The notes beneath the pieces were generated by a model, which saw nothing but the letters and a program-made list of their open reading frames with translations, was not told where the DNA came from and did not search any database. DNA of 64,000 bases from Candidatus Poribacteria bacterium. GTDB taxonomy: Bacteria; Poribacteria; WGA-4E; PCPOR2b. Location of the stretch: NCBI GenBank assembly GCA_965208325.1, contig OZ242326.1, positions 1,024,001 through 1,088,000 on the forward strand. The letters run 5' to 3'. The position numbers and the translations under genes were made by a program. This document shows positions 24,453 to 59,803 of this stretch, piece by piece (position 1 is the stretch's first letter; every line of letters starts with the position of its first letter).

Positions 24453-24722
24453 TCAAAACTTACAAAAAGCCGTCAATCGCATTGTGACCCTGGCTTTAGA
24501 AACCAAGTAGGTTTTCAAAACGCGGTTGCTCCGCCATGCGATGCAGGTATAGGCAAAGATTAAAGCATAACACGTGCAAACTTGATTTTATCATAGCACA
24601 TTTCCACCCGTCCAGAAAAACAGGAAATCGATTCCGCATTTCTATGTGCCGATCGAGCGGTTTGTGCTATCATACCGGTTGTGCTAAATTCAGAATTCAA
24701 CCTGAGAAAAGGAGAATTAGAT

Positions 24723-29310: not shown

Positions 29311-29384
29311 CGCCTTGATGATTCATGCAATCAGACTCCACTAAGGAGAACAGAGTTCCCAATCAAATCCCAGGAGGACGACAA

Positions 29385-30167: not shown

Positions 30168-30180
30168 GGGGTATACGGTT

Positions 30181-31938: not shown

Positions 31939-32072
31939 TATGATACGCATGGCACAATTTTCAGTACTCTAGCCTCATCGGAAAACTAATTTTCTACATG
32001 AATTATCCAAAACAGATTGAGATTCATGATTCGCAACTCTGCCGTTACAACTTGTGTAAAAGGGGGATAGTC

Positions 32073-33830
32073 ATGATGCGTTACATTTTAGCTGCAGTAG
32101 GTCTCACTTTCGCCGCACTATTGGCGAGTGCGGAAGAGCAGATATTGTACGTTTCCGGAGAAATCAGAAATGCCGAGATATACAGGCAATTTCCCGGCGG
32201 GGAACCCGAAAGGCTCACATTTAACGCCGGAACTGACGGCCATCCCGCGTTATCGCCCGATGGGACGAAGATGGCGTATTTCACGACTATTGATAGGGTA
32301 TATCAAATCGCCGTCCTCGACTTTGAATCCGGCGAACGCGAGCAACTTACATTTTCGCGCTGGCCGAGGAGCAATTTCCATCCATCATGGTCTCCGGACG
32401 GAAAGCGCATCGCTTACTCTTCAGAAGAAGATGGTGATTTCGATATATATATCATGGATGCCGACGGCAAAAACGTGACAAACATGACCGATAATTCCCG
32501 TTGGGACGATAGTTGGCTGCATTGGTCGCCAGCAGGCCCAAAAATTGTGTTTACCTCCAATCGAGATGGAGGAGTGGATGAAGTCTATCTGCTTGATGTA
32601 AATACGCGTGTTCAACGCAGACTCACAAACTCATTCATCCGTGCGACTTATCCCAGATGGTCGCCGAACGGTTCCCAGATCGCCTACGTATCGGCAGAAT
32701 ACCCTGAGTCGAAGCCGTCAACGTGGTCCATTTGGCACATGAAGGCGGATGGATCGGATTTGGAGAGATTAGTAACAGACGTCGACAGAAACGCACGCCC
32801 AAAATACTCACCGGATGGAAAGCGGATTGCGTTTGTATCATCTAGAGACTCAAATACAGATATTTATGCTTTCAACGTCGAAACTAATGAGGAAGCCCGT
32901 TTAACGGTGCACCTAGGCTACGACTCGTACCCTGATTGGTCTCCAGACGGCGAGCGAATCGCCTTTGTTTCCACCAGAGACGGGAATCGCGACATCTTCA
33001 CAATGACCCTTGAACGAGAGCAGTTAACCAATTTGACAAAGAGCGTTACATCTGAAGGCTACCCGACTTGGTCTCCTGACGGCGAAAAAATCGCTTTCAG
33101 CCGGCGGCTAGGGGACACCAGTACCAAGATTTTCGTGATAGACAGCACTGGTGAAAACGAAATCAAACTGGCCGACTTGCCGTTTTTCAACCTGTATCCG
33201 TCATGGTCGCCTCGAGGGGATAAAGTCGCTTTTGTGAATTACCCAGAGCGTAAAAATTCTATGTTCCGAATTTTTACGGTTGACCCGGATGGTCAAAACC
33301 TACAAGTGTTATATGAAGATCAGTTGGAAGAGTGGGATTCAGGGATTACTTGGTCAAGTGACGGAACTGAGATTATATTCAGTCGAGCTGGCATTTGGAT
33401 AGTCTTTCTCGACACGGTGACCCTTGAAGTTCGCACGGTGCAACTACCAGTGATCGGTTTCAAGGACCCCAATTGGTCGCGCCACGGTCAAAACATCACT
33501 TTTTCCGCGGTCACCGAATTGGCTGAAACATTTCAACCGCGCGATGGCGTCTACATAATTGATCCCGAAGGGAATCCGTTACGAACAATTTTGACGGACG
33601 GGCGTTCTATAACTTACCTTGGATTAGCTTGGTCGCCGGACGGGAATAAGATTCTCGTCGGCCGCGAAGACGGCATATACACGCTTGACCTGGATACCGA
33701 AGCCATGGAGCTATTCATGGAATCCGCAAGTAATCCGAATTGGCAGGATCCGACGCTACCTCGGTCAGTGTCTCCGCGAAATAAGCTGAACACAACGTGG
33801 GGCGACATGAAAAAACTTGGAGCGCGCTGA
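32073..33830 (+). CDS. TolB-like (PD40 repeat) secreted protein, paralog 2
   Basis: Colinear with 30181; ends SVSPRNKLNTTWGDMK. Confidence 0.85.
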   Translation: MMRYILAAVGLTFAALLASAEEQILYVSGEIRNAEIYRQFPGGEPERLTFNAGTDGHPALSPDGTKMAYFTTIDRVYQIAVLDFESGEREQLTFSRWPRSNFHPSWSPDGKRIAYSSEEDGDFDIYIMDADGKNVTNMTDNSRWDDSWLHWSPAGPKIVFTSNRDGGVDEVYLLDVNTRVQRRLTNSFIRATYPRWSPNGSQIAYVSAEYPESKPSTWSIWHMKADGSDLERLVTDVDRNARPKYSPDGKRIAFVSSRDSNTDIYAFNVETNEEARLTVHLGYDSYPDWSPDGERIAFVSTRDGNRDIFTMTLEREQLTNLTKSVTSEGYPTWSPDGEKIAFSRRLGDTSTKIFVIDSTGENEIKLADLPFFNLYPSWSPRGDKVAFVNYPERKNSMFRIFTVDPDGQNLQVLYEDQLEEWDSGITWSSDGTEIIFSRAGIWIVFLDTVTLEVRTVQLPVIGFKDPNWSRHGQNITFSAVTELAETFQPRDGVYIIDPEGNPLRTILTDGRSITYLGLAWSPDGNKILVGREDGIYTLDLDTEAMELFMESASNPNWQDPTLPRSVSPRNKLNTTWGDMKKLGAR

Positions 33831-33835
33831 AACAA

Positions 33836-34053
33836 TAGACATCTTTCCTAATTAACTCAATGTGGTTGACAAAACCGAAGCGTTAAGGGCAACCACAAGG
33901 GTTGCCCCTACAGCGTATTAGCCCAATTTGAGGGTAGTCGTTTTACACCTGCCGCCCCTCTGGGGCTAGATGTTGATGTGTAACAATGTTTTCTATATAC
34001 CTGTCGCCCCTCCGGGGCTATCCGGCGGTGGAATTATTTTGGAAAGATGTCTA
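33836..34053. mobile_element. MITE-like element, 218 bp, TIR TAGACATCTTTCC, carrying REP-like hairpins
   Basis: tagacatctttcc at 33836-33848 and ggaaagatgtcta at 34041-34053 form a perfect 13-bp IR that extends imperfectly to about 22 bp; internal gggcaacc..ggttgcccctac and two cctg.cgcccct..ggggcta units. Confidence 0.8.
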
Positions 34054-34218
34054 ATACATTAGCGTGATCGTAGTTCGAAGAAGCCGTGAATACGCGTAGC
34101 GATTATATTACGCCATTGACACACTTTGGACTCGACCTTCGGTTACAGTTAATCCCCCCAACCAATTCAATCCTACATTGCGTCTCGTTCAGTTCAATTA
34201 TTGGAGGAGAGATACAGC

Positions 34219-35973
34219 ATGATTTATCGCATTGCCATGTTCACCGTAGGTCTCGCTTGCATTGCGTTGTACGCTAACGCGGAAGAGCAGATCCTCTTTG
34301 TATCCGACCGAGACGGGAACAGTGAGATATACAGGTATTTCCCCGGCGGCAGACCCAAGAGGCTTACATTTGACGAAGGACCGGACGGCCATCCAGCGTT
34401 ATCCCCGAATGGGAAATCAATGGCGTATGTCACGACGATTAATCGGGTATCCCAAATCGCTGTGCTGGACTTCAACACCGGCAAACGCCGGCAACTGACC
34501 TTTTCGCCCAAGAACGACGTTCATCCCACATGGTCCCCGGACGGCAGACGAATCGCATTTTCGTCCAACCGCGACGGTGATTTCGATATTTATATCATGA
34601 ATAGAAACGGGACGAACGCGATAAATATGACCGATAATTCCCCTCTGCACGACGGATCGCCTCACTGGTCTCCGGCAAGCCAAAAGATTGTATTTACCTC
34701 TGAGCGGGATCGTCTAGCCCCAAAAGAAGTTTATGTGCTTGATTCCCAGGCTGGTAACCGGCGAAGACTCATCACTTCATCATCATTTGCGTTTAATCCC
34801 AAATGGTCACCGAACGGGTCACTGATTGCGTATTATTCTACGGACATGTCTGACACCTCACCGTCGACTACTCTTCTTTGGCGAGTGAAACCAGATGGTA
34901 CAGAATTGGAAGTATTGGTGGCTGAAGGGGAGTCAAATTCACATCCCAAATTTTCTCCTGATGGATCGTCAATTGCGTTTGTGTCTGAGAGAAACTTTAA
35001 CATGGACATTTATGCTTTAAACCTTGAAACCAAGGAGCTAACTCGCTTAACAACACATCTTGGCTACGATTCGCACCCCGATTGGTCTCCAGATGGAGAA
35101 CGGCTAGCCTTCCTTTCCAGCCGAGACGGGAATTCAGATGTCTTTACAATGACAGTCAACGGAGAGCACATCACAAACCTGACCATGAGCGGCATGAATG
35201 AGGGGTTTCCCACTTGGTCCCCTGACGGAGAAAAAATAGCGTTTAGTCGGTTAATGGGGGACAACAGCGTCAGGATTTACGCGGTTGATTCCGATGGTGA
35301 TAATGAGGTTCAACTGGTTGACTTGCCAGTTGCCAACCTCTACCCTGTCTGGTCCCCGCGCGGGAACAGACTGGCTTTTGTGAATCTCCCGGAACGCGGA
35401 GACCCGACACACCGAATTTATACGGTTGACCCCGATGGGATAAACCTACAAATGTTGTATGAAGATTTGCTCGAACCTATTGACGAAATTGCTTGGTCAC
35501 ACGATGAGTCTCAGATTGTTTTTGGTCGAACCAACAATGCAATCGCCTTTCTGGATACGGAGACAGGAGAAGTCCACTCAATAGATGTGCCTGTATGGAA
35601 TCTGAGTTCCCTAGATTCCTCACCCGACGGGGAGGACATTGTCTTTTCAGCGTTAAAGCCAATCGACAATCCAGTACCGCGCTTAGGAATCTCCATCATT
35701 GATACTGAAGGAACGCTCCTACGAATCGTCCCGACGGACCTGCGAATATCGTTGTTGAACCAAGGGCTTTCGTGGTCTCCCGACGGGAATACAATTCTCG
35801 TCAGTGACGAACATGGCATATACACGCTTGACTTGGACACCGAATCCGTTGAGCTATTCATCGAATCTGCCAGTTACCCGGATTGGCAGAATCCGTCTCT
35901 CCCGCGCTCAGTCACTCCTAAGAATAAGCTGAATACCATATGGGGTGAGATGAAATCCGGAGATACGCGTTGA
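34219..35973 (+). CDS. TolB-like (PD40 repeat) secreted protein, paralog 3
   Basis: GGAGGAG RBS; ANA-EEQ signal; ends SVTPKNKLNTIWGEMK. Confidence 0.85.
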   Translation: MIYRIAMFTVGLACIALYANAEEQILFVSDRDGNSEIYRYFPGGRPKRLTFDEGPDGHPALSPNGKSMAYVTTINRVSQIAVLDFNTGKRRQLTFSPKNDVHPTWSPDGRRIAFSSNRDGDFDIYIMNRNGTNAINMTDNSPLHDGSPHWSPASQKIVFTSERDRLAPKEVYVLDSQAGNRRRLITSSSFAFNPKWSPNGSLIAYYSTDMSDTSPSTTLLWRVKPDGTELEVLVAEGESNSHPKFSPDGSSIAFVSERNFNMDIYALNLETKELTRLTTHLGYDSHPDWSPDGERLAFLSSRDGNSDVFTMTVNGEHITNLTMSGMNEGFPTWSPDGEKIAFSRLMGDNSVRIYAVDSDGDNEVQLVDLPVANLYPVWSPRGNRLAFVNLPERGDPTHRIYTVDPDGINLQMLYEDLLEPIDEIAWSHDESQIVFGRTNNAIAFLDTETGEVHSIDVPVWNLSSLDSSPDGEDIVFSALKPIDNPVPRLGISIIDTEGTLLRIVPTDLRISLLNQGLSWSPDGNTILVSDEHGIYTLDLDTESVELFIESASYPDWQNPSLPRSVTPKNKLNTIWGEMKSGDTR

Positions 35974-42152: not shown

Positions 42153-43208
42153 TCATACCGCCTTTTGAAGATGTTGACCGATAACATGCGCCGTAAATTT
42201 TACGATTGACACCACACGCGAGTATTCCATCCGCGTTGGTCCGATCACGCCTATGGTGCCGAGTAAATCGCCTTGAACGCTAAAAGTCGACTGGACGACA
42301 CTGCACATCTCCATTCCTTCACACCTATTTTCGCTGCCGATAAGCACCTGAATGTCAGGACTCTCTTTTTTTGGCGAGAGGAGGTCTGCTACTCGTTCTT
42401 TTTGCTCCAAAAAACGAAACAACGGTTCAATTTGTTCCACTTCCAAAAATTCAGGCTGGCCGAAAAAATTGGAAGTGCCGTTTAGATAAACGTGGATTTC
42501 CCTATCCAGCGAAAAGGTGCTGCGCGCCAGCGTTGCGACAGAATCAGACAGATCCTGATCGAAAACCGCTTTTAGATTTTTATGGCTTTGTGAAATTCGT
42601 TGTATCTCCCCCAAGGACAATCCCGCTAACTTTTCATTCAGAATTCGGCTGATTCGTTTGATATCAGCTTTGGATACGCTTTCACGGATGGAAATCACTT
42701 GATTCTTGACAAGCCCTGAATTCGTAATCAATACGACTACTACCCGCTGGGTATCGAGCGGAATGAGTTCCAATCGCCGTAGAATACCATCATGCAATTG
42801 AGGGCTTAAAGCAACTCCGATGTAATGAGAAATTTGAGATAAAATCTTAGAAGTCTGTTCGACGGTTTCAACAATATCGAGTTCCGATGAGTCGTACCAT
42901 TGTCGAATGAATCTACACTCCTCATCCGTTAACCGTTGAGTTGTCATCATATTGTCGACGTACACGCGATAGCCGAGTTCCGTTGGGATTCGCCCCGCCG
43001 ACGTATGCGGTTGCGTCAAGTAGCCATATTCTCCAAGCTGCGCCATCGTATTCCGAATAGTTGCCGGGCTCAATCTCATGTCACATTGCCGAGCAATCGT
43101 CCGGGAGCTGACAGGCTTCGCTGTCCGATTATAGCATGTAATAATCGCTTCAAGCACCTCGCGTTTTCGGGCATTCAGCACAGCGGTTGTCAATGGCGCC
43201 GCCCCCAT
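42153..43208 (-). CDS. hrcA: Heat-inducible transcription repressor HrcA
   Basis: LSPATIRN.M, QPHTSAGRIPT..GYR.YV, IGPTRM.Y; start moved to 43208 because 43235 lies inside CIRCE. Confidence 0.95.
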   Translation of the reverse strand: MGAAPLTTAVLNARKREVLEAIITCYNRTAKPVSSRTIARQCDMRLSPATIRNTMAQLGEYGYLTQPHTSAGRIPTELGYRVYVDNMMTTQRLTDEECRFIRQWYDSSELDIVETVEQTSKILSQISHYIGVALSPQLHDGILRRLELIPLDTQRVVVVLITNSGLVKNQVISIRESVSKADIKRISRILNEKLAGLSLGEIQRISQSHKNLKAVFDQDLSDSVATLARSTFSLDREIHVYLNGTSNFFGQPEFLEVEQIEPLFRFLEQKERVADLLSPKKESPDIQVLIGSENRCEGMEMCSVVQSTFSVQGDLLGTIGVIGPTRMEYSRVVSIVKFTAHVIGQHLQKAV

Positions 43209-43219
43209 CTCTCTTAATG

Positions 43220-43246
43220 TTAGCACTCTTTTCATAAGAGTGCTAA
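43220..43246. promoter_or_regulatory. CIRCE operator
   Basis: Perfect TTAGCACTC-N9-GAGTGCTAA. Confidence 0.97.
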
Positions 43247-43254
43247 ATCGGGTA

Positions 43255-43284
43255 AAGATACCATTTTACCCACCGATGTGTCAA
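43255..43284 (-). promoter_or_regulatory. Sigma70-like promoter of the hrcA operon (TTGACA-N18-TATCTT, extended TG)
   Basis: Lies immediately upstream of CIRCE on the minus strand. Confidence 0.65.
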
Positions 43285-43421
43285 GCCAAAAGGAAAAGAG
43301 TCACATGCCAGCGTCATCGACACGAACCCTTTCTCTCTGCACCTCGAAGACCAGTTTTAATTTGCGCCGCCTTACCGGCCACGCCCATATAAGTAACACT
43401 GCACCCTATCTGTATGCACAC

Positions 43422-44168
43422 TCATCCATGGACTGCATCTGCGAATCTCTTCATTAACGAGAAGGAGTTTTGCTGTTCAATGACGTTTCCTGTCACAATA
43501 AAGTCCGCCCCGGCGTTTACCTTTGCAACAGCCAACTCCGGCGTCGTGATTCCTCCGCCCACTATGATAGGAATAGTAACGTGTTTGCGAACGGCGCCGA
43601 TTAATTCCTCCGGAACGGGTATTCTTGCGCCGCTGCCCGCCTCAAGATAGATGAACTTCATACCGAGATACTCCGCAGCAAGCGCGTGCGCCCACGCAAT
43701 GTCCAATTTATCACGCGGAAGCGGGGCAGTCCCGCTCATAACTTCAACCGACGTAGCAGTACCACCGTCAATAAGCATATACCCTGTGGATATCGCCTCT
43801 ATACCGCAACGGTGAATTAATGGCGCCGCTTTGACCTGCTCGCCGATTAGAAAATTGGCATTCCGGCCGCTGATTAGGCTTAGGTATAATATGGCATCGG
43901 CATGCTGGGATAGGTGCATAGAGTCCCCGGGGAACACAATGACCGGTAAAGACGTCTCGTCCTTCAAGGCTTTTGCAAACGGGTTGAGGTCATTTGTCAA
44001 GAGGCTGCTCCCCAGCAACAGTGCATCAACTCCTGCTTCTTCCGCTTGATGCGCAACATGCATGCAATCGGCGATGGAATGCCGATCGGGGTCTAAGAGC
44101 ACAATGTAGCCTGCTCTGCATCTTGACAGAACATTCAGTAGGTAATCTAAGGTTGAACCTGATTTCAT
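43422..44168 (-). CDS. Geranylgeranylglyceryl phosphate synthase (GGGPS/PcrB family, group II-like)
   Basis: LLDPD, LGSS, FPG, LSLISGRN, GYMLIDGG, YLEAGSGA, VGGGI, VTGN. Confidence 0.92.
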   Translation of the reverse strand: MKSGSTLDYLLNVLSRCRAGYIVLLDPDRHSIADCMHVAHQAEEAGVDALLLGSSLLTNDLNPFAKALKDETSLPVIVFPGDSMHLSQHADAILYLSLISGRNANFLIGEQVKAAPLIHRCGIEAISTGYMLIDGGTATSVEVMSGTAPLPRDKLDIAWAHALAAEYLGMKFIYLEAGSGARIPVPEELIGAVRKHVTIPIIVGGGITTPELAVAKVNAGADFIVTGNVIEQQNSFSLMKRFADAVHG

Positions 44169-44246
44169 GGGGTTAGGTGTTTGGAGATTCGTTTTTTCAA
44201 ATCTGCTCTCGCCGCCATTGAATCTGATGGAATTAGACCGATTGCG

Positions 44247-45440
44247 TCAGAGCCATCCGGAGCGTATGAGATGTCTCAATTCCAGTAGCAAGCGTGGTTG
44301 GTGCATCAACACCGTCTTAAAAATCTGCATCATGTTGACCTTGTCAGGCGGCATCTTTGACACCACCTCCGCACACTTGTCAAAAAGGTCATCACTGAAC
44401 TTAAGCACACCATCTCGTATTCGGCAGACGTGCTTGAAATTACTGCCAATTTCCTTGTCCCACCGGTTTTGATAAGCGCTCAAAATCTTTGCGGACACAT
44501 CTCCAATTCGGATAGCATCGACCGCCGCGTCGGCGGCAAATTGTCCCGAATACATTGCGTTTGCGACCCCGCCGCCAGAAATAGGATCGCTATGGTGCGC
44601 CGCATCGCCAATCAGCATAATCCCGTCACCCACAATCTTGGGCAGACTATTCCCTACCGGCACACAACCGACGACCTGCGCAAGAATTTTTCCGTGCGGA
44701 AATTTTCGTTTGACGAATTCATTTAGATAGTCGATGGCGAGCTTCCCGCCCTTACCGGAGATTGTCCCGCCGATTCCGATGCCGACATTCGCAATGTCAT
44801 CTCCTTTAGGGAAAACCCAGGCATAGCCTCGCGGCGCAAGCTCGCGGCCAAGGTAAAAATCGCAGAAATCGGGGATAATGCCAATCTTAGAAATTAAGTA
44901 TTGGGCGCAAATGTCCACGTCACGTAAATCGTGTGTGCTATCTATGCCCGCCCACCGCGCCACCTGCGATTCAATTCCGTCGGCAGCGATGACGACCTTC
45001 GCCTTACATGAGTAGTCACGTCCGAAATAACGGAATACCACCCCGTTGACGAAACCGCCATCTGACTTGGAAACGGTCGTCGCCCGTGCTTTAACGATAA
45101 TTTCGGCACCCGCATCCGCCGCCATTTCCGCCAAGACTCGATCGAAAACCTTGCGTTCTAAAACATAACCGGCGCCCGGAAAATGGATTGTGGCGGCGGT
45201 TTCGTTGGGAGAAAAGATTCGAGCGCCGTTAATTTCGCGCGAAACCCACGCCGGATCGGGCTGAATAAACTCGCACAGCGACGCTGTACCAATCCCCTCC
45301 GCTCAACGCACCGGCGCGCCAATTTCCTGACGTTTTTCCAACAACAAGACACGCAAGCTATTTTCTGCGGCAACCTTAGCGGCAATTGCACCCCCAGGGC
45401 CGGCACCGACAACAATGACATCATAGTCCGAGTGAACCAT
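44247..45440 (-). CDS. Digeranylgeranylglycerophospholipid/geranylgeranyl reductase, 397 aa, with in-frame TGA at codon 46 (candidate selenocysteine)
   Basis: Manual translation: [17 protein letters not shown]...[17 protein letters not shown]...LERKVFD, continuing in frame into the track ORF 44247-45134 (ADG, GYAWVFP, GDAA..DPISGGG). Confidence 0.88.
45268..45294 (-). promoter_or_regulatory. Candidate bacterial SECIS hairpin
   Basis: mRNA after UGA reads GCGGAGGG-GAUU-G-GUACAGC-GUC-GCUGUGC-G-AGUU; the G-initiated apical loop begins 20 nt after UGA. Confidence 0.6.
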
Positions 45441-45658
45441 CAAAAAAGTCCCCGTCCTTCGTACGCTGGGTAATACACCTTACCGTTTCGTTCTAATGCA
45501 AGCACGCCTACCGGGCAACCTTTGATGCATCGCGCACAGTCGGTGCACTTGGGCTGGTCTATTTTCAGATAGATATCAACGAGATCAATGATGTTCTCAG
45601 GACAGACGGCAACACAAGCCCCACAATAACTACAAAGTTCTTCGTCTATAAGAATCAT
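45440..45658 (-). CDS. 2x[4Fe-4S] ferredoxin
   Basis: [12 protein letters not shown] and [12 protein letters not shown]; its stop overlaps the reductase start (TGATG). Confidence 0.92.
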
Positions 45659-45769
45659 CGCATGCCTTTCCCGCTTGAGAACGTAATTTCTACAGTGCGA
45701 GTTTCCTAATATTTGGATTCATTTAACGGTTAATGGTCAACTATTTTTCTTATGATTTTGGTATCGAAG

Positions 45770-46591
45770 TTAATTTACCGATTGAAACTGCCGCCGTCGG
45801 ACGTGTTCAAACAGTATTATTCCAGCGGCGACCGCAACGTTCAACGAGGATTGGCCAGGCGCCATAGGAATCTTGACAAGGTTGGTGCAAAGTTGGAGAA
45901 TTTCTTCCCTGATTCCTTCGTTTTCATTTCCCACCACAATCGCCAAGGGGGTACTAAGTTCCAAATCATACAGGCTCGTGTTCGCCTTGGCGGTGGCACC
46001 GAGAATCTCAAATTCAGCCGAAATCAACTGAGGAAAATAATCTTCCGGTGACTCGCAAAATGCCAGTGAACTGCGCCCAACAGCTCCTCTAGCAGCCCGG
46101 ACACAGTTCTTATGGAAGGGGTTTGCGCCTTCTCCGATGAACACGACGGAATCAACTGCCGCCGCTTCAGCGGTGCGCAGCACCATGCCAAGGTTATCCG
46201 GATTGGTGACACTATCGGCGATTAACAGCGTACTCTCAGCCGGCAGGTGAAGATCTGCCGCGTTCTGGTAATTCATCCAAACCGATGCGATCACGGCTGG
46301 AACCGGTCTCGTGCTGGTAATGGTCCCCATTAGTCCGGCGCTAAGCATAAATGGGGCGAATTTTGCTGCGGCGGAATTATTCAGTAATGCAACCCCCCGC
46401 TCATTCGCCAACAGGTCGGGAGTATAAAGGATTTTGTCAACCGGTAACCTGTCATGAACAGCACGATCGACGAGCGTAACGCCTTCGACCACAAATCTGG
46501 ACGCCTTCATTCTCCCGTTTAGTGAGCTAAGTTTGCGAAATTCAGAGATGATAGGATGCTTTTTACTGTTTATAACCGCTCGGTTCGCCAC
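45770..46591 (-). CDS. TrmH/SpoU family RNA methyltransferase
   Basis: NPDNLG..LR, VVGNENEG, IPM...SSLNVAVA. Confidence 0.9.
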   Translation of the reverse strand: MANRAVINSKKHPIISEFRKLSSLNGRMKASRFVVEGVTLVDRAVHDRLPVDKILYTPDLLANERGVALLNNSAAAKFAPFMLSAGLMGTITSTRPVPAVIASVWMNYQNAADLHLPAESTLLIADSVTNPDNLGMVLRTAEAAAVDSVVFIGEGANPFHKNCVRAARGAVGRSSLAFCESPEDYFPQLISAEFEILGATAKANTSLYDLELSTPLAIVVGNENEGIREEILQLCTNLVKIPMAPGQSSLNVAVAAGIILFEHVRRRQFQSVN

Positions 46592-46597
46592 TTTTGC

Positions 46598-47446
46598 CTA
46601 TGGGGAGGATCCAAGGTAGATTGCCCCCAATCCAATGAAAATGTCCCACTTCATCCATTTTTGAATCTGTGCGCTGTTGGCTCTGGAATCATTCCGCCAA
46701 AGCCGATAGCCTAGATATATTAATACCAAATCCACACCTACGATAACGGTTAAAAGATAATGCCACGAATACCAATTCAGAAAATATGGAATCGGACTGA
46801 ACAATATAACCGCGGCGATAAAGATGAGTGCAATCAGCACGGCAACCCGTTTTCCCCAAACTACAGGAATTGTACGCGCATCGTGCCGGACATCACCCTC
46901 CGTGTCCTCAATGTCTTTAATTATCTCTCTTGCGGTGGTAAACAGTAGCGCAAATACCGCCGGAACGAACGTACCGGAAACAGTCCGCACCGAGGTTCCT
47001 CCTACAATGAAAGTTAAGCCTGTCAGTACCCCAACTAGGAGATTACCGAATAACGGTGTTTGTTTCAAGCAGAACGCGTACAAGACAAGACAACCGGACA
47101 CGGTGACGGTAATTGCCGCAGTATGCAGGTTAACTGTAAACCCAAACAAGATTCCCAGTCCCATCAATGTTATAGAAAACACCATAGCGCCTTGTCGGGA
47201 AATCCTTGCGGACGGAATCGGACGATCGGGTTTGTTAATCCGATCTATCTCGTAGTCACAATAGTCGTTGAGCGCATTGCCCGCCGATAGGAGCAGAAAC
47301 GCCGAACTCGCTGCCAACAACACATTGATATTAGTTACGACGACCCATTCCCCCAACCCGACTGCAAACATCGCTCCGAGATAGACAGAGAAAAAAGCGA
47401 TCAATCCGTTTATTGGACGTGAAAGTTGAAGATAAGCTGTAATCAT
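46598..47446 (-). CDS. Digeranylgeranylglyceryl phosphate synthase-like UbiA prenyltransferase
   Basis: RPIN, AGNALNDYCDYEIDRINKPDRPIPS, AREIIKDIEDTEGD...T.P, matching DGGGPS-type motifs. Confidence 0.85.
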   Translation of the reverse strand: MITAYLQLSRPINGLIAFFSVYLGAMFAVGLGEWVVVTNINVLLAASSAFLLLSAGNALNDYCDYEIDRINKPDRPIPSARISRQGAMVFSITLMGLGILFGFTVNLHTAAITVTVSGCLVLYAFCLKQTPLFGNLLVGVLTGLTFIVGGTSVRTVSGTFVPAVFALLFTTAREIIKDIEDTEGDVRHDARTIPVVWGKRVAVLIALIFIAAVILFSPIPYFLNWYSWHYLLTVIVGVDLVLIYLGYRLWRNDSRANSAQIQKWMKWDIFIGLGAIYLGSSP

Positions 47447-47474
47447 TAGGGCAACAGTTTAATGCGTTGGATTG

Positions 47475-48542
47475 TTACGCTTCGCGGCCCGGATATGTGA
47501 TGCCGAATCTAACGGAATAATACCAGCGAACGAAAATTAGGCTTCCAGCGAGCAAAATTATGTAAAATGGGGCTAAAACACAAGCGATAAGTGAAAGAAT
47601 GAGTATACCTGCCCGTGCCGCGAAGATAATAACCCTTCGTTCTCTCCTGAAGTTCATATAAATGAAAGGCGGTAAACAGAGTAATGCGGTAAATAATGGT
47701 ATCATATCTTTGACCCACCATGCGGCCAAAATTGCGCCCACCAATAGCACCAAGCTCAACAAGCAGGATAGCTTGGCGCCTAATATTACGCCGGTCGTAC
47801 GATCTCCGAACTCACTGTCGCCGTTCAAATCCGGGAGCGTCGTGTTGACAAAGGCTGCCCCCACACACAAGGCATAAGGGATTATCCGCCGCAAGGCTTC
47901 GCCGTTCATCGGCGCTGCTAACCCCCAGCCGATTAAAAATGCGATGCCGCCATAGCCGGCGGCGTTGGCTAGAAGGTCGAGGAAGGGTCTCCCTTTTAAT
48001 CGAACTGGACGAATGGAATAAACGACGCCAAGTAAGATTGAAAGCCCAATTAGGACGAGATAGCTCAGGTTGTTTCTAAACCAGAAACCTGCCCAAACCA
48101 CGGCAGAAACAAGTAACATGCCGGCTTCCAACACAAGCAGCCGAATTTTCACATGTCCCTGCGCAACGAGAAAGAGTTTGTTGTTTGCTGCGTCTGTTTC
48201 TTTGTCACAGATTTGGTTGATGATGTAAATTGCCCCCATCAGCATAGAGTACAAACAGAGGGTACCCAGCAACTCATGATTGGGACGAACCAAAATATTA
48301 AATTTCGGCAGAAATGCGAGCTGTACTGCCCTCAATCCTTCGTATGTAGAAGTGTCAGACAATGCGCCATAATAGCCAAGCAACACAAGGGTCCAAACCG
48401 GCAGCAGCAGTGTTGGACGAAGGACAATTATATAATCCAAAAGATGTATCGCGCTGCGTTTCGTGGGTTGCAGCTTAGTTTGAGTGAGTGAATTTCCCAT
48501 TCCAAATCCGACTGCGCCTGAGATGCCGCGTCCACAATACAT
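47475..48542 (-). CDS. Second, divergent UbiA-family prenyltransferase (start may be 48500)
   Basis: YIINQICDKETDAANNK, YSIRPVRLK.RP, NTTLPDLNGD; multiple TM segments. Confidence 0.8.
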   Translation of the reverse strand: MYCGRGISGAVGFGMGNSLTQTKLQPTKRSAIHLLDYIIVLRPTLLLPVWTLVLLGYYGALSDTSTYEGLRAVQLAFLPKFNILVRPNHELLGTLCLYSMLMGAIYIINQICDKETDAANNKLFLVAQGHVKIRLLVLEAGMLLVSAVVWAGFWFRNNLSYLVLIGLSILLGVVYSIRPVRLKGRPFLDLLANAAGYGGIAFLIGWGLAAPMNGEALRRIIPYALCVGAAFVNTTLPDLNGDSEFGDRTTGVILGAKLSCLLSLVLLVGAILAAWWVKDMIPLFTALLCLPPFIYMNFRRERRVIIFAARAGILILSLIACVLAPFYIILLAGSLIFVRWYYSVRFGITYPGREA

Positions 48543-48564
48543 GGGAATTCTTGCGTATGACGCA

Positions 48565-49401
48565 TCACGCGTAACGTAGTACGTTTAAGTATGCAAAACG
48601 ATTGATGAGTCTGTTTTTTAAGCACTCAAATTTAAAACGGCGTCTTCCCAATAAACCGAGTTTTCCCTGGAAAGATCGAAAGGTGTCACATCGATAGATT
48701 CCCATCCGCGGGAAACGGTACATCGCTTCAAGTGATAACTCCCGGACTGGATCCAAGCTAAACGCGATGCGGTATCCGGCAGATTTCACCAAATCCAATG
48801 TCTCCGCATTCACACTTCCATACGGATATGCGAAACTCCGAACGGGGCGGCCTAGAATATGCTCGAGCCGGTATTTAGATTCCTCGAGCTCTGCGTTTGC
48901 CTCGACCCGGCTGCAATGCGTTAAGAAGCGGTGGTGCAATCCGTGGGACCCAAACCCAATCCCATTTTGGACGAGTGATTTAATTTGGCTTTCGCTTAGA
49001 TGTTTAGGGCGTTTTAAACTGCGCTGCACATCCCACTCATTTAACCGTCCAATGTATGCCGCAATCATAAATACAGTTGCCGTTAAGCCGTATTTTTTCA
49101 GGATCGGGTAGGCGAAATTATAGAAGCTTTCATAGCCGTCATCGAAGGTAATGAGGATTGGATTACATGGCAATGCGGAATGAGATGAGATGAAATGAAT
49201 TAAGCTATCCGGGGTGATAGCGGTATACCCCTGCGCCGCAATAAATCGCATCTGGGACTCAAAAGTTTGCGGAGAAATAGAGTTTACCCCAAGTTCGAAT
49301 TCAACGTCCACTTGATGATAAGCCAGAACAGGAATACACCATTTCATTGGGAGGGGAGTTAGGTGTTTTGAAACTTTTCTACGACCCAGTCGATTCCTCA
49401 T
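48565..49401 (-). CDS. Polysaccharide deacetylase (NodB/CE4)
   Basis: PVLAYH, ITFDDGY, GSHG..H, FAYPYG. Confidence 0.9.
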   Translation of the reverse strand: MRNRLGRRKVSKHLTPLPMKWCIPVLAYHQVDVEFELGVNSISPQTFESQMRFIAAQGYTAITPDSLIHFISSHSALPCNPILITFDDGYESFYNFAYPILKKYGLTATVFMIAAYIGRLNEWDVQRSLKRPKHLSESQIKSLVQNGIGFGSHGLHHRFLTHCSRVEANAELEESKYRLEHILGRPVRSFAYPYGSVNAETLDLVKSAGYRIAFSLDPVRELSLEAMYRFPRMGIYRCDTFRSFQGKLGLLGRRRFKFECLKNRLINRFAYLNVLRYA

Positions 49402-50455
49402 TAATTCGGCGGCATTTATCTTCTAACTCAAGCACTCGCTGCTGTAGCCGGGAGAACTCTTGCAACATAGCGGGTAGTTTGCGGAGAGAGGCTTGGATAC
49501 GTAATTGCTGAGCGTGCGGCCGCGCCGGGAAGCCGGACACATAACTTCCCGCCGGTGTATCTTTTGTAACGGCGGATTTTGCAAAGATAATGTTCCCTTC
49601 GCTTATTGTGAGATGCCCTGCGACCCCTGATTGCCCCGCCATCGTTACCCTGTCTTTGAGTTCGCTGCTGCCTGCGATTCCTGATTGGGCAGCGATACAA
49701 CAATCTTCACCAATTATGACATTGTGAGCAACCTGCACCAGATTGTCGATTTTGGTGCCGCGCTTGATTATTGTCGCCCCATTCGTCATCGTAGCGCGGT
49801 CTATTGTCGAATTGGCGCCAATTTCGACATCGTCCTCAATGATTACTGTGCCAACCTGTGGAATCTTGTAGTACCGATCGCTGACAGCGGCAAAACCAAA
49901 TCCATCGCTGCCAATTACCGCTCTACTGTGAATAATGACACGATTTCCAACCTTGACCGCGTCGTAAATGGTGACACCGGGATAGAAGAGCACATCACTT
50001 CCAATCTCGACGTCATCTCCGATATACACGAATGGGTTGATAACCGCACCATTGCCAATTTTGACGTTATCGCCGACGACGGCAAAGGCTTGGATTGAAA
50101 CCTGCTCCCCAATCTGGGCGTTTTTGCCGATGATTGCAGTTTCATGGATGCCGTACTCGGTTTCCCGTTTTGGCCATGCAAACATCTCCATCACTTTGAC
50201 GAAAGCAAAATACGGATTATCAGCACGGATCGTCGGCTTGCCATTTTCTCCATTCGTCGGAATAAAGTCCTTGCCGATGATAACTGCGGAAGCCTGTGTG
50301 TGCTCTATTTCCCCCCGATACTTGGCGTTTGCGACAAAGGTAATTTCGTGCTCTTGCGCCTCCTTAATACCCGAAACGCCCCGAATTTCAATCTCGCCGT
50401 CGCCGCACAACTCTCCACCGATTAACTCACAGACTTCCTTCAACTTCTTTACCAT
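49379..50455 (-). CDS. lpxD: UDP-3-O-acylglucosamine N-acyltransferase
   Basis: Hexapeptide repeats, IGSDGFGF, KIDNLVQVAHN. Confidence 0.96.
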   Translation of the reverse strand: MVKKLKEVCELIGGELCGDGEIEIRGVSGIKEAQEHEITFVANAKYRGEIEHTQASAVIIGKDFIPTNGENGKPTIRADNPYFAFVKVMEMFAWPKRETEYGIHETAIIGKNAQIGEQVSIQAFAVVGDNVKIGNGAVINPFVYIGDDVEIGSDVLFYPGVTIYDAVKVGNRVIIHSRAVIGSDGFGFAAVSDRYYKIPQVGTVIIEDDVEIGANSTIDRATMTNGATIIKRGTKIDNLVQVAHNVIIGEDCCIAAQSGIAGSSELKDRVTMAGQSGVAGHLTISEGNIIFAKSAVTKDTPAGSYVSGFPARPHAQQLRIQASLRKLPAMLQEFSRLQQRVLELEDKCRRINEESTGS

Positions 50456-50593
50456 CGTTCTCCGAGTTGACGATTGCTGCGCATCAACCCTGCTCCCTTA
50501 TGCTGCTCTTATTTGACGCCCGGCCGTCTGCGAACGCACAACCCGCCAATAGCCTACTCCACTGTACATTGAAAACCGTACATGTGCCAGCAG

Positions 50594-51187
50594 CTACTCA
50601 TCTTTATTGGCGCCAGTTGCTGCAGCGGGTTTTTCATCCTCAGCAGTGGCTTCTTGTTCGTATTCTGTATTCAATATCTCAATAATGTTATTCGTTAAAT
50701 CGTGCTTCGGGTCAACATACAGCGTCACAAGGCGTTTTTCGAGGATTATACTATAATTTTCGTTCGTACCAATCTGTTGAATTAACGCTTGAATCTCATT
50801 CAAAATGGGCTGGAACAGTTCCGTCTGTTTTTCCTGTAGCGCGCCTTGGCCGACCTCCAGCTCACGCTGAAACTCCTGCTTTTTCCGCAGAATGTCACCC
50901 TCTAAAGTCTGTGTGGCCGATTCATCAAGGAAAAGTTTTTGCTTGGTCAGACTGTCCTCCATGTCTACGATTTCTTCCCTAAGTGCTTCCAGTTTATCGC
51001 TAAGCCGCTTTTCTGCGGATTTCAGAACATTTATCGCTTGCTCAGCTTTTTTGTAACTTTCAAACACACCTTGGGTGTCCACAACGCCGATTTTGAAATT
51101 GCTTTGCGCCAATGCACAAAGGTGGAGAAGAAACAACCCCGATGAAACGATGCTTAAAGGTAAATATAATTTCCGGTTGCGTATCAT
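50594..51187 (-). CDS. skp: Periplasmic chaperone Skp/OmpH
   Basis: Signal peptide, KIGVVD, coiled coil, DLT..II; lies between bamA and lpxD. Confidence 0.88.
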   Translation of the reverse strand: MIRNRKLYLPLSIVSSGLFLLHLCALAQSNFKIGVVDTQGVFESYKKAEQAINVLKSAEKRLSDKLEALREEIVDMEDSLTKQKLFLDESATQTLEGDILRKKQEFQRELEVGQGALQEKQTELFQPILNEIQALIQQIGTNENYSIILEKRLVTLYVDPKHDLTNNIIEILNTEYEQEATAEDEKPAAATGANKDE

Positions 51188-51246
51188 GCTTTCATCCTTG
51201 TTAGAGTATGTGAACCTTCCGGTAATTGCAGTTCACCCGAAGGCAA

Positions 51247-53613
51247 TTAAAAACCTGGGCCAATAGTGAAGTGAATCTTACCCCCCGGCTCCTTAATACC
51301 GTCGCCGTTTCTATCGCGATCAAATCCATATCCCCATTCCAATCGCGCGAGCATGCCCAGCAAATCAAAGCGGATGCCAACGCCGGCACCTTTCTTAAAA
51401 TTAAGGTCTTTGAAGATATTTGGAGTACTCTCGTGCCACACATGTCCGATATCAAAAAACACGGCGCCGGTTAACTGTGGGCTGATTGGAATACGATATT
51501 CGAAATTCCCGTAAACCATTTTGTTTCCACCGAATTCGCCGGTGCTTGGACGGATTTCATGCCATTCATACCCGCGGATGGTGTCGTCGCCGCCGAGGCG
51601 GAATCGTTCATAGCGCAGGTATATGCTATCGTCAAGGCGGCTTTTCAAGTATCCGGCTCGTATATGGGTGGCAAAGACAAAGTGTCGACCTGTATTTACA
51701 AATAAACTGGAGTCGAGAGAATATCTTTGAAACTGATTCTCGGCGCCAAAAATTCCGCCAGCGTACTCATAAGAGGCTGTGTTAAGAAGGCCAGATACCG
51801 GGTAGTATGAACTCCGCCAATAGTCGCGTGTATCCCTTGACAAGAAAAACGTCACGCTGCGTGTCAAGCGGCTGGCAATGTCTTCAGGTTCTAGGGTGAT
51901 TGGGTCGAAGGCTCGGTTGTAATGAACACGCTCGTTCTTCAGGCGAACTGATGCATCCATATCCCTAGTGATGGGACGCCCAAGCGTTATAGCGCCTCCT
52001 TTTCGCGTAAAAATATCACGGTCATTTGTAGATTGGCTTGGGAAAATTCTGTTATACGAATAATACCTATTATATCTATATGACCTACGGGTATTGTACA
52101 AACTCAGATTGAGGCGGGTGGGCGTCCCGAGAATCCAGGGTGTATTGAACCGAAGTTCAGCGGTGTGCCGATCTCTGGCGCCTAACTCGCCCTTCAAGTG
52201 AATACGGTAGGCACGTCCGAAGAGGTTATTTTCGCCGACTTCCGCGACGCCAAAAATTCCCCCTTCAGTTCCATAACCGCCTCCCAAACTAAACATACCC
52301 GTGCGCGGGGATTCCGCAACGTTTACGCTAAGATCCCGCAGTGTTCCTTCCGATTCACTTGGTACAAAGTCCACACCTCGAATGAATGGGCCCATCTGGA
52401 AAAGCCGCTGACGCGCTTTGCGCAAGGAGGCAACATCAAAAAATTCGCCCGATTTTATATCTAAATGATTAAGCTCGCGCCGTATTACATTCTCTCTTGT
52501 CTTTTCTAAACCGTTGATGCTAACTTTATCAATGACGATGACAGCCCCTTCGTTCACGTTCAACGCAATCTTGAGGTTCCCACTCTCTTCGTCATAATTA
52601 GGGTGAGGAACAATCTCGGCTAAGATATAACCCTTATTTTGGTAGGCTTCTTGAATCTCGTCAAGGGATTTTTGAAATTCGCCGCTATTGAAGATTTCGC
52701 CCTCAGGCGGCTCTAGCATATCACGAATCTTTTCTTCGGAAAACGCCGGTTTATCCGACTGTTGAAGTTTAATGTCATATAAATCGACGATGTATTGCGT
52801 GCCTTCATCGACGGTAATGTCCAGCATCATCCCTGTCTTATCATCAGTGAAGCGTTTTGTATAATCGTCGTTGATTTTTGCCTGAGTGTATCCCCTGTCC
52901 TGATAATAGTGAAGCAATGTGAGTAAATCCGCTTTAAGTAATTTTTCGTCAAAATGCTTTCCAACACGGATTTTCATCTGCTTCCCGAGTTTTTTCGAGG
53001 AGACTTCATCGTTGCCAATGAAGTTTATTTCTTGGACCTTGATTCTTGGACCTTCACTAATGTCAAATGTTACCGAAATCGTATTGTTCTCCGGATTCAA
53101 ATCCGCATGGGTTTGCACACCAACTAGATAGTAACCAGCGTCTTTGTAGGCATTAAGAATCTTCTGCTCGCTTTCCCAACGGCGTTGATCGCTGTAGATT
53201 TCGCCTGGTTTGAGTGTAATCTCGCCATTGATTTTTTTGTAACTCAACTTTTCATTCCCAATAATGTTAATGCCGCCTTCAATCTTGGGGCTTTCCGTTA
53301 ACCGATAAATGACTTCAAGTCCGCCTTCATCTAGCGGTTCAACATCAACGGCAATGTCGGAGAAAAAGCCTGTATCTTTGTAAAGATTCTTGATATCCTT
53401 CGTTAATTGGTCAGGAGAAATTTCTTCGCCGACTTTGGTCTGTATAATCGCACGAAGCATGTCCTCCGGACCGCCTTTCGCTCCTTGAAACGAGATTTTC
53501 TTGACAGTCAAGGCGTCATCGTTTGCGGGTGTTGTTTCTTCAGCATAGAGGTTAACTGAACCCATGACTACGGTAAGCATCACAACAAATAAAACGGTTC
53601 TAATCGGGTTCAC
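51247..53613 (-). CDS. bamA: Outer membrane protein assembly factor BamA
   Basis: POTRA repeats, LGG..TIRGY, C-terminal F.IG..F. Confidence 0.95.
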   Translation of the reverse strand: MNPIRTVLFVVMLTVVMGSVNLYAEETTPANDDALTVKKISFQGAKGGPEDMLRAIIQTKVGEEISPDQLTKDIKNLYKDTGFFSDIAVDVEPLDEGGLEVIYRLTESPKIEGGINIIGNEKLSYKKINGEITLKPGEIYSDQRRWESEQKILNAYKDAGYYLVGVQTHADLNPENNTISVTFDISEGPRIKVQEINFIGNDEVSSKKLGKQMKIRVGKHFDEKLLKADLLTLLHYYQDRGYTQAKINDDYTKRFTDDKTGMMLDITVDEGTQYIVDLYDIKLQQSDKPAFSEEKIRDMLEPPEGEIFNSGEFQKSLDEIQEAYQNKGYILAEIVPHPNYDEESGNLKIALNVNEGAVIVIDKVSINGLEKTRENVIRRELNHLDIKSGEFFDVASLRKARQRLFQMGPFIRGVDFVPSESEGTLRDLSVNVAESPRTGMFSLGGGYGTEGGIFGVAEVGENNLFGRAYRIHLKGELGARDRHTAELRFNTPWILGTPTRLNLSLYNTRRSYRYNRYYSYNRIFPSQSTNDRDIFTRKGGAITLGRPITRDMDASVRLKNERVHYNRAFDPITLEPEDIASRLTRSVTFFLSRDTRDYWRSSYYPVSGLLNTASYEYAGGIFGAENQFQRYSLDSSLFVNTGRHFVFATHIRAGYLKSRLDDSIYLRYERFRLGGDDTIRGYEWHEIRPSTGEFGGNKMVYGNFEYRIPISPQLTGAVFFDIGHVWHESTPNIFKDLNFKKGAGVGIRFDLLGMLARLEWGYGFDRDRNGDGIKEPGGKIHFTIGPGF

Positions 53614-58701: not shown

Positions 58702-59803
58702 TTAAGTTTGACTTCTCTTTTTCAAGTAACTTTCGATAAAATTATCTAAATTGCCATCCATGACTGCGTCAATGTTTCCCGTTTCAACATTAGTCCGTAA
58801 ATCTTTTACTAGCCGATAGGGATGAAACACATAGGATCGGATTTGATTGCCAAAATTGATATCCGGGCGTTCTCCCTGCAGCTTCGTAATCTCTTCGCGG
58901 CGGCGCATCTGATAATGTTCGTAGACCCGTGAACGCAATACTTTCATTGCCAATTCCCGGTTCTTATGTTGCGACCGCTCATTCTGGCATTGGGCGACAA
59001 TTCCTGTTGGAATGTGAGTCATCCGGACTGCGGAATCTGTTCGGTTGACATGCTGTCCGCCGGCGCCGCTTGATCGATAAGTATCAATTCGCAGATCGGC
59101 GGGTTGGATGTCAATATCAACAGTCTCACCGATTTCAGGAGAAACGGCAACCGCGGCGAATGAAGTGTGGCGGCGGTGATTAAAATCGAATGGCGAGAGA
59201 CGGACAAGGCGGTGGACACCGACTTCTGCGCTGAGGTAACCGTAGGCATAGTCGCCTGAGACCAAAACGGTCGCACTCTTGATTCCCGCTTCTTCGCCGG
59301 GCATCAGTTCTATGGTTTCGGTTTGGTAGCCGCGGCGCTCACACCAACGCGTATACATTCGCAAGAGCATGAACGCCCAGTCCTGGGATTCTGTGCCGCC
59401 GGCACCGGGGTGAATAGTCAAGATAGCATTACTTATGTCATGCTTACCATTAAGCAGGAGCATGGTTTCTACCTGCTCAATTTGCTCCTCAATACCATCT
59501 AGATTTCTACTAATTTCTCCGCTTACACTCTCATCATTTTCTTCGATTGCCAATTCAAGTAGAATCTGAATATCTTCGAGCTGGGAGTAAAGTTTCCCAA
59601 ATTGTCCAATTTCTTCCTGTAAATTTGCGAGCCGCTGCGTGACTTTTTGGGCGTGTTGAGAGTTATTCCAGAAACCCGGTTCTGACGCCTCCCTTTGAAG
59701 TGCGTCTATCTCTTCCGCTTTACTCGCAATGTCAAAGACACCCCCTGAGATCGAGGAGTCGATTAGAGACCGCTTGGATATTGAGTTTCAAATCAGCTAA
59801 CAT
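58702..59803 (-). CDS. prfB: Peptide chain release factor 2 with programmed +1 frameshift
   Basis: SPF and GGQ motifs; ORF1 MLADLKLNIQAVSNRLLDLRGCL ends at AGGGGG-TGT-CTT-TGA-C (59746-59731), and the +1 frame continues DIASKAEEI...PGFWN. Confidence 0.96.

Follow-up and report, generated by a model that had tools for sequence, protein, structure and literature searches.

That some bacteria carry archaeal-type lipid genes is established for the FCB (Fibrobacteres, Chlorobi and Bacteroidetes) group, as described in parts of two studies (PMC7852524, Villanueva et al.; PMC6431249, Coleman et al. 2019). Namely, excerpts of the first describe Cloacimonetes that encode geranylgeranylglyceryl phosphate synthase (GGGPS), digeranylgeranylglyceryl phosphate synthase (DGGGPS), a euryarchaeal-type geranylgeranyl reductase (GGR) and polyprenyl synthases together with lipid A genes, and that lack both glycerol-1-phosphate dehydrogenase (G1PDH) and CarS (PMC7852524). 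Here we analysed a window, a 64,000-nucleotide stretch of the genome of a sponge-associated Candidatus Poribacteria bacterium (contig OZ242326.1, positions 1,024,001 to 1,088,000), in which six co-oriented minus-strand genes within 43422-48542 encode a divergent UbiA-family prenyltransferase (UbiA2), a DGGGPS-like UbiA prenyltransferase, a SpoU-family methyltransferase, a ferredoxin, a GGR and a GGGPS. As in Cloacimonetes and the FCB group, CdsA and head-group enzymes of bacterial type presumably substitute for the missing steps; the Poribacteria differ in having one cluster, next to lpxD, that holds the reductase, the ferredoxin and both synthases, in an additional divergent UbiA and in a GGR that is a predicted selenoprotein. 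We consider it probable that Poribacteria have inherited this region vertically as a gene cluster for archaeal-type isoprenoid glycerol ether lipids, with a GGR that carries selenocysteine (Sec).

Archaeal digeranylgeranylglycerophospholipid (DGGGPL) reductases (3oz2 from Thermoplasma acidophilum, 3atq from S. acidocaldarius and the M. acetivorans enzyme) resemble the Poribacteria GGR in full-length alignment, the FAD-binding GxGxxG motif, the GGR_cat domain and an adjacent ferredoxin. They carry an essential Cys47, whereas the predicted Poribacteria reductase has a UGA-encoded residue and a bacterial host. According to a portion of PMC10821996, every archaeal GGR conserves Cys47 and the S. 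acidocaldarius enzyme cannot do without it, while its role is only speculated on. An earlier note on this DNA had treated the GGR as a plain 295-codon open reading frame (ORF), which did not hold. The table-11 ORF (295 amino acids, 44247-45134) is missing the FAD-binding N-terminus, and its matches to GGR models start only at about position 100. The true frame begins at an ATG at 45440, overlapping the ferredoxin stop, and runs for 397 codons plus stop (44247-45440, minus strand) through an overlooked in-frame TGA at 45305-45303, codon 46, in the motif PVR-U-AEG. Read through, the protein scores 230 bits against TIGR02032, compared with 134 for the truncated ORF and a cut-off of 158.8. It aligns with 3oz2 over residues 5-392 (E 3e-77), placing the TGA at the Cys of PVRCGEG, and full-length homologues carry PVRCAEG with Cys in the same column.

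The two halves of a reductase lie on either side of this codon: GAGPGG, the GxGxxG element, at residues 12-17 upstream, and the catalytic domain (GGR_cat, PF22578, 89 bits) downstream. The read-through protein is the sole GGR_cat match in the genome and scores 295 bits with the DGGGPL reductase model NF041160, as against 155 for BchP/ChlP. Where the family has Cys47 the codon here is TGA; we read Sec as a functional analogue of Cys and the protein as a putative variant still within the GGR family.

To place this codon in context, we used two scans, one of 41 related genomes (hereafter relatives) and one of 176 genomes across the phylum. All 19 full-length GGR orthologues among the relatives (70-100% identity) carry exactly one TGA. 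Across the phylum, 56 of 176 genomes have a GGR orthologue. Inside the order of the window (families f1-f4; 69-100% identity), codon 46 is TGA in 39 of 39 orthologues that cover it, 38 of them without any further stop; outside the order, none of 13 covering orthologues has a stop there, the 11 that were read have TGT or TGC, and four further matches miss the codon. No non-Poribacteria GGR gene in our 80-GGR tree set has a stop at the Cys codon. A single switch from Cys to Sec at the base of the order is the simplest reading.

The stretches before and after the TGA are both under purifying selection and hence translated in one frame: relative to the window GGR, 20 orthologues with the TGA (Sec-type) show 422 synonymous against 116 non-synonymous differences over codons 1-45 and 603 against 292 over codons 47-120. 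The genetic code is not reassigned, since TGA serves as a common stop in this genome. It terminates 657 of the 1916 open frames with a length of 300 codons or more, and both the ferredoxin gene and the GGR gene end in it. Three other sponge-metagenome assemblies from different studies cover 44200-45700 with 10-23 substitutions, none at the TGA, and no indels.

Downstream of the UGA lies a hairpin that resembles a Sec insertion sequence (SECIS) (45260-45302, minus strand; upper stem-loop 45273-45289). Its loop stands 20 nt after the UGA, atop a weaker lower helix; the upper stem has 7 bp (45289-45273) and the 3-nt loop reads G(G/U)(C/A), the first G being invariant. We aligned 23 distinct sequences and compared them with 500 shuffles and with a slid 3' partner. 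Pairing was found in 88.2% of stem cells, against 29-53% with the 3' partner slid, and no shuffle of 500 reached the observed pairing, the double-change count or the covariation score. Three stem pairs show compensatory changes (C-G/U-A, A-U/G-C and C-G/A-U/U-A), some of which alter amino acids, as in the replacement of TASLC by AEALH. Of the 7 stem pairs, 6-7 are kept in nine Sec-type genes, as opposed to 1-4 in 11 genes with Cys codons (Cys-type). The hairpin therefore covaries and is specific to TGA-bearing genes. It also fits what we take to be the bacterial SECIS rule of the bSECISearch work, a loop G 16-37 nt from the UGA. Separately, a small perfect inverted repeat, CCGC-UGA-GCGG (45299-45309, minus strand), has the UGA as its 3-nt loop; it is predicted by RNAalifold and kept in most of the 23 sequences (21-23 standard pairs where pairs never or rarely vary); this repeat may simply mirror the Arg and Ala codons.

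The genome encodes the machinery that such recoding needs. Genes for tRNA-SeC (anticodon tca), SelB and SelA are grouped at C1:2041505-2044983, and selD, with its own in-frame TGA, lies at C1:4481278-4482201 (minus strand); the SelA, SelB and SelD protein matches all exceed their cut-offs. Among the relatives, selA is present in 40 of 41, the exception being a 730-contig assembly, and it was also found in 4 of 5 Cys-type Poribacteria sampled, which argues that the phylum used Sec before the GGR was recoded. The genome also holds a member of the CUAEP/CCAEP-tail radical SAM (seleno)protein family (C1:3513058-3514479, plus strand, 679 bits). Since the TGA sits at the Cys column and is conserved, the hairpin covaries and the Sec machinery is present, the UGA is almost certainly read as Sec at the predicted catalytic site.

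This arrangement follows that of bacterial selenoproteins with Sec for Cys and an fdhF-type SECIS: an in-frame UGA where homologues have Cys, a stem-loop shortly 3' of it with a conserved apical-loop G, and selA, selB, selC and selD in the genome. It differs in the enzyme, as the lipid-saturating GGR family did not turn up in the selenium-related literature that we searched. Among the papers listed in a literature search combining selenoproteins with geranylgeranyl and DGGGP reductase terms, none concerned a Sec-containing GGR, the literature that we found on Poribacteria selenoproteins concerned hydrogenases only, and we know of no selenoenzyme reported in membrane-lipid synthesis. We thus describe the Sec-GGR as a new selenoprotein variant of a known enzyme, for which we found no published report.

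Directly upstream, and joined to the GGR by a TGATG overlap of stop on start (a gap of -1 nt), lies a 72-amino-acid 2x[4Fe-4S] ferredoxin (45440-45658, minus strand; Fer4 families, two CxxCxxCxxxCP motifs). The same adjacency occurs at 14 of 16 Poribacteria loci and at 51 of 64 further loci, which belong to methanogens, Thermoplasmatota, DPANN archaea, Chloroflexota, Ignavibacteriota and LCP-89; contig ends cut some of the remaining 13. Ferredoxin-GGR fusions exist as well (for example P0073 and P0097), including in Poribacteria. A passage of PMC9385802, citing Isobe et al. 2014, reports that a GGR of M. acetivorans depends in E. coli on the ferredoxin encoded next to it. On the strength of adjacency, fusions and this precedent, the ferredoxin is the likely reductant of the GGR. 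In a quick maximum-likelihood tree of the 80 GGRs, the Poribacteria form one clade (SH-aLRT 100) inside ferredoxin-linked archaeal-type GGRs, next to Chloroflexota (89), then Ignavibacteriota with LCP-89 and then Thermoplasmatota with ANME-1.

The two synthases flank the reductase pair. GGGPS (43422-44168, minus strand) exceeds the curated cut-offs of TIGR01769 (210.7 against 161.55 bits), NF003198 (274.7 against 247) and PF01884 (142.7 against 23.9). Its best PDB matches are 4jej (1.5e-52), 4mm1 (7.6e-50) and 6nke (1.2e-44), which we take to be group II entries; 2f6u (1.1e-6) and the PcrB entry 4nae (1.9e-4), presumably group I, follow far behind. By these matches the window enzyme is closer to group II than to group I, and we assign it as a group II GGGPS predicted to form the first ether bond. 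It shares with Bacillus PcrB, a group I heptaprenylglyceryl phosphate synthase, the bacterial GGGPS/PcrB TIM-barrel that makes an isoprenoid glycerol ether, and differs from it in group (about 1e-50 for 4jej and 4mm1 against 2e-4 for 4nae) and in being paired with DGGGPS and a reductase.

The DGGGPS-like UbiA (46598-47446, minus strand; PF01040, 147.5 bits) is predicted to form the second ether bond. The earlier note had considered that it might group with quinone or chlorophyll prenyltransferases; it proved nearer to DGGGPS by structure match (6m31, a digeranylgeranylglyceryl phosphate synthase, 5.7e-37, against 7.7e-13 for chlorophyll synthase) and by subfamily score (232-246 bits against at most 94 for others such as EboC and ChlG), and its Asp-rich motifs NDYCDYEID and KDIEDTEGD align with 6m31. 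An MqnP/UbiA-like quinone prenyltransferase and a heme O synthase are encoded elsewhere in the genome. Public annotation already labels Poribacteria proteins as DGGGPS and DGGGPL reductase. The best 120 matches to the DGGGPS query are close relatives, every named one Poribacteria. Each of the 16 loci nearest to the window in named public genomes is titled Candidatus or uncultured Poribacteria; the host is therefore not one of the FCB-related bacteria for which the earlier note mentioned such gene pairs. The identities that the note gave to UbiA2, the DGGGPS-like enzyme, ferredoxin, GGR and GGGPS hold by profile and PDB matches. As a side observation, a third UbiA (306 amino acids; C1:1151080-1152000, plus strand) is weakly DGGGPS-like (NF009523, 131 bits). 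Look-alikes of this type, with ~23-30% identity to the cluster DGGGPS, were matched in 34 of 41 relatives at E<1e-10, including all relatives without GGGPS.

The genes of the set co-occur. Among the 41 relatives, GGGPS is present in 25; 24 of these also have DGGGPS, which no other relative has, and the one without it is a 910-contig assembly. UbiA2 is present in 18, again GGGPS carriers only. GGR likewise occurs only inside the GGGPS set, in 19 relatives as an intact gene, in G029 frameshifted, in G008 cut by a contig end and in G026 as a 62-residue remnant; none of the 16 relatives without GGGPS has a GGR orthologue, which disfavours a role of GGR on quinones only. Decaying copies can be located individually: the G029 gene at C2:1265194-1266383, the G026 remnant between GGGPS and DGGGPS at C20:68680-68862, and a copy with an extra TAG in G135 at C136:31529-32719.

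Gene order is conserved too. Half of the named Poribacteria loci (8 of 16) have the cluster, as do Cys-type Poribacteria outside the order, so its arrangement is not due to chance. The order UbiA2-DGGGPS-(SpoU)-ferredoxin-GGR-GGGPS is seen in L026-L029 and, without SpoU, in L031-L033; L030 gave no UbiA2 or SpoU match, and L028 has a partial DGGGPS match only, apart from UbiA2. In Cys-type Poribacteria the order lpxD-deacetylase-UbiA2-(two other genes)-DGGGPS-ferredoxin-GGR-GGGPS-hrcA is recovered piecewise, with L132 and L133 spanning lpxD to GGGPS and L134 spanning DGGGPS to hrcA-grpE. This recurrence argues that the cluster is old in the phylum. Family f2 keeps only ferredoxin and GGR together, the GGR lying apart from GGGPS and DGGGPS. 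The earlier note had called the set more complete than a simple pair; this stands as a statement about clustering and falls short as one about content, since Cloacimonetes genomes assembled from metagenomes (MAGs) also have GGRs, according to an excerpt of PMC7852524. In the Cys-type clusters, a 540-552-residue protein without a Pfam match is encoded between UbiA2 and DGGGPS (L133:7956-9614 and L127:4283-5905, both minus strand). The gene next to it encodes a pyruvyl transferase in L133 and a GT2 glycosyltransferase in L127; both genes are absent from the window cluster.

Two cluster genes lie further from the core. UbiA2 (47475-48542, minus strand; PF01040, 64.5 bits) bears the Asp-rich motifs NQICDKETD and DLNGDSEFGD, and its start may lie downstream of the first ATG. 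Its NCBIfam subfamily matches are all at most 56 bits and its sole PDB match is chlorophyll synthase (7e-6); on its acceptor, Atlas, PDB and NCBIfam gave nothing beyond 'UbiA family'. Its homologues are UbiA proteins of Poribacteria, KSB1, Krumholzibacteria and Zixibacteria, and we suggest that it acts as an accessory prenyltransferase. An LCP-89 locus (L054:3262-5508, plus strand) has a UbiA2-like gene directly upstream of ferredoxin-GGR, with 29% identity to UbiA2 and no match to the DGGGPS query; UbiA2-type enzymes may be functionally tied to GGR in other phyla. The remaining gene, named TrmH in the earlier note, encodes a SpoU-family RNA 2'-O-methyltransferase (45770-46591, minus strand; PF00588, 118.9 bits) whose best matches are RlmB/TrmH-like and under cut-off (TIGR00186, 114.7 bits against 160). 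No match to it was found in the clusters of L030-L033 or in Cys-type clusters, and we regard it as an inserted passenger outside the pathway.

Precursors would have to come from elsewhere in the genome, a single contig of 4,707,648 bp that is 95.6% complete by marker genes. Two polyprenyl synthases are encoded. One of them (C1:2802405-2803445) is IdsA/GGPP-synthase-like and thus answers the suggestion of the earlier note that a geranylgeranyl diphosphate (GGPP) synthase be sought outside the window; it has a Trp five residues before the first DDxxD, a position at which a bulky residue presumably leads to a short product. One CdsA and three CDP-alcohol phosphatidyltransferases are also present, as are five Fe-ADH_2-type genes. 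The best of these five, a GldA-like gene, was rejected as a general source of glycerol-1-phosphate, as it scores 323 bits with GldA and 80 with G1PDH (cut-off 413) and occurs in 4 of 41 relatives, all of one genus. Of 20 radical SAM matches, the seven longest ORFs were scanned and none was named Tes by NCBIfam, no Tes-specific model being used; one radical SAM ORF (C1:1372159-1373802) has no NCBIfam name and matched no PDB chain.

In the mechanism that we propose, a short-chain prenyl diphosphate synthase encoded outside the window would supply GGPP, the group II GGGPS would couple it to glycerol phosphate and the DGGGPS-like UbiA would attach the second chain. Bacterial CdsA and CDP-alcohol phosphatidyltransferases could supply head groups, and the GGR, an FAD enzyme presumably reduced by the translationally coupled upstream ferredoxin, would saturate the chains after SelB and tRNA-Sec recode codon 46 with the help of the SECIS hairpin. 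From the genes we infer what the lipid product is, the stereochemistry of its glycerol, where in the cell it lies and how selenium affects catalysis. The cells may have a mixed membrane, with saturated archaeol-like lipid alongside lipid A.

Several results weigh against this reading. G1PDH and CarS, absent from the window as the earlier note had said, have no canonical copy in the complete genome either (best NF002022 score 69 bits against a cut-off of 413; no PF01864 match), so that the G1PDH and CarS of a complete archaeal phospholipid pathway are missing and both substrate supply and activation depend on unproven bacterial substitutes. The DGGGPS-like UbiA stays under the NCBIfam equivalog cut-offs (NF009523, 245.7 against 269; NF009521, 231.7 against 296). 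The single-sequence fold after the UGA (-22 kcal/mol, z = -0.33) is no better than shuffles, which makes the case for the hairpin a comparative one only, and no Rfam family matched it. GGR was not found in three genomes with GGGPS and DGGGPS (G028, G037 and G040) and is present in 16 of 112 scored family f2 genomes and 1 of 20 of genus g5, with 8 of 40 in g8 and 5 of 65 in g14. Saturation is therefore dispensable, given that GGR was not found in those three genomes or in most f2 and g5 genomes, and the whole pathway probably is so in many lineages; loss of one or the other seems to be under way in several.

Such gaps also bear on what the product is. It is unlikely, though by no means negligible, that the genes are as described and make a minor or specialised isoprenoid glycerol ether, such as a glycoconjugate anchor or a PcrB-like mono-ether, rather than bulk phospholipid. 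The missing G1PDH and CarS would suit such a product, as would the extra UbiA2, the phylum-wide embedding of the cluster between bamA-skp-lpxD plus a polysaccharide deacetylase and hrcA, the GT2 or pyruvyl transferase and ~540-552-amino-acid protein between UbiA2 and DGGGPS in Cys-type Poribacteria, and losses in many lineages, which make the pathway non-essential. However, synteny with envelope genes may be mere inheritance, GGGPS and DGGGPS co-occur save in one fragmented assembly and form a diether core set with a GGR of the DGGGPL reductase type, and the homologous Cloacimonetes pair gave an archaetidylglycerol-type lipid in E. coli through bacterial head-group enzymes (an excerpt of PMC7852524). 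More improbable still is that GGR and ferredoxin act on another prenyl substrate, such as a polyprenol that carries glycans or the side chain of menaquinone, and have only an incidental place in the cluster. GGRs are promiscuous according to part of PMC10821996, weak matches to MenJ and ChlP models were seen, and the f2 genes stand away from GGGPS and DGGGPS; yet the best matches are DGGGPL reductases, relatives lacking GGGPS lack GGR in 16 of 16 cases, a quinone-type prenyltransferase is encoded separately, and the order DGGGPS-ferredoxin-GGR-GGGPS is kept in distant Poribacteria.

That the enzymes salvage or break down the lipids of archaea sharing the sponge is an idea raised generally for bacterial GGGPS and DGGGPS in a part of Coleman et al. 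(PMC6431249). DNA near-identical to the window is indeed present in sponge metagenome runs, but synthesis is indicated by the reductase, which would draw on ferredoxin, and by the GGPP-synthase-like gene, and L031-L033, open-ocean MAGs by their record titles, keep the cluster. We know of no evidence for reverse activity of these enzymes and give salvage very little credence. The TGA could, finally, be a true stop in a pseudogene or split gene, or an assembly error, with the hairpin a terminator or functionless. Gene callers truncate here, many database homologues are 292-345 amino acids long, a consensus scan lists the hairpin as terminator-like, its fold z-score is not significant, and degraded copies are real (G029, G026 and G135). 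Against this stand the TGA at one codon in every covering orthologue of the order, 38 of 39 with no other stop; purifying selection in one frame on both sides of it, neither fragment alone being a complete flavoenzyme; its place at the catalytic Cys, in a genome with full Sec machinery; covariation through amino-acid-changing substitutions of a hairpin that Cys forms lack; and agreement, without indels, among assemblies from other studies. A true stop is accordingly hard to credit at all.

Returning to synthesis with a Sec-GGR as the favoured reading, the ether-lipid genes themselves are a new phylum for a known phenomenon. The main texts of PMC7852524 and PMC6431249 mention Poribacteria nowhere. 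A 2026 preprint (10.64898/2026.06.23.733905) reports elb, agps and mss genes in sponge symbionts and describes the Poribacteria as having no recorded ether lipid biosynthesis; GGGPS and DGGGPS have no occurrence in it. Matches to Tes and Mss in Poribacteria MAGs have been reported (PMC11868695), and a search for Poribacteria with GGGPS found only general essays. What is added here is a Sec-GGR inside a lipid cluster, order-wide recoding with Cys forms outside the order, a Sec-specific hairpin and a phyletic pattern shared by four genes. The presence of archaeal lipid genes in bacteria matters for the 'lipid divide' and for the question whether mixed membranes exist in nature. A compact and conserved cluster with a coupled ferredoxin, in a second phylum outside the FCB group, offers a clean gene set for reconstitution. 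Because the truncated ORF falls under the TIGR02032 cut-off and the read-through protein above it, lipid-gene surveys of Poribacteria genomes will miscall or under-score the reductase.

A bolder proposal is that Poribacteria make selenium-dependent, saturated archaeol-type lipids destined for the envelope, and that Cys47 of GGRs is redox-active or nucleophilic; as a whole we think this rather improbable. The envelope destination is suggested by phylum-wide co-inheritance of the cluster with glycan-modifying genes and bamA-skp-lpxD. Replacement of Cys by Sec is usual only at thiols that take part in redox or nucleophilic chemistry, so the Cys-to-Sec swap amounts to a natural experiment on Cys47. 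If the proposal were true, selenium supply would determine which lipids a bacterial sponge symbiont has in its membranes, and the swap would settle the debated role of Cys47 in GGR.

The surroundings of the cluster are those of a diderm bacterium. The earlier description of six co-oriented, closely spaced genes was confirmed for every gene and coordinate by profile matches and ORFs, the intergenic gaps from UbiA2 to GGGPS being 28, 6, 111, -1 and 78 nt. Upstream and in the same direction lie the diderm markers bamA, skp and lpxD and a polysaccharide deacetylase, and GGGPS is followed downstream by hrcA, grpE, dnaK and dnaJ. A promoter and terminator scan of 43000-51500 gave counts no different from shuffles, and an Rfam search of 43000-49000 at E up to 5 gave one chance snoRNA-like match (E 0.65). 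Elsewhere in the window, the ORF of prfB (release factor 2; 58702-59553, minus strand) starts only at position 60 of the PCRF profile and has a CTTTGAC motif just upstream on the same strand (59731-59737), which resembles the classical programmed +1 frameshift of this gene. Typical expanded families in the window are represented by four tandem PD40 beta-propeller proteins (27343-35973, plus strand) and by five Laminin_G_3 domain proteins, four of them within 7526-11821 and at 16456-17286 (plus strand). Three PhyH-family (phytanoyl-CoA dioxygenase) genes lie within 9 kb (15386-16351, plus strand; 20135-20926 and 23575-24456, minus strand); the family is broad, and these genes may be of note in a genome that possibly makes phytanyl-type chains.

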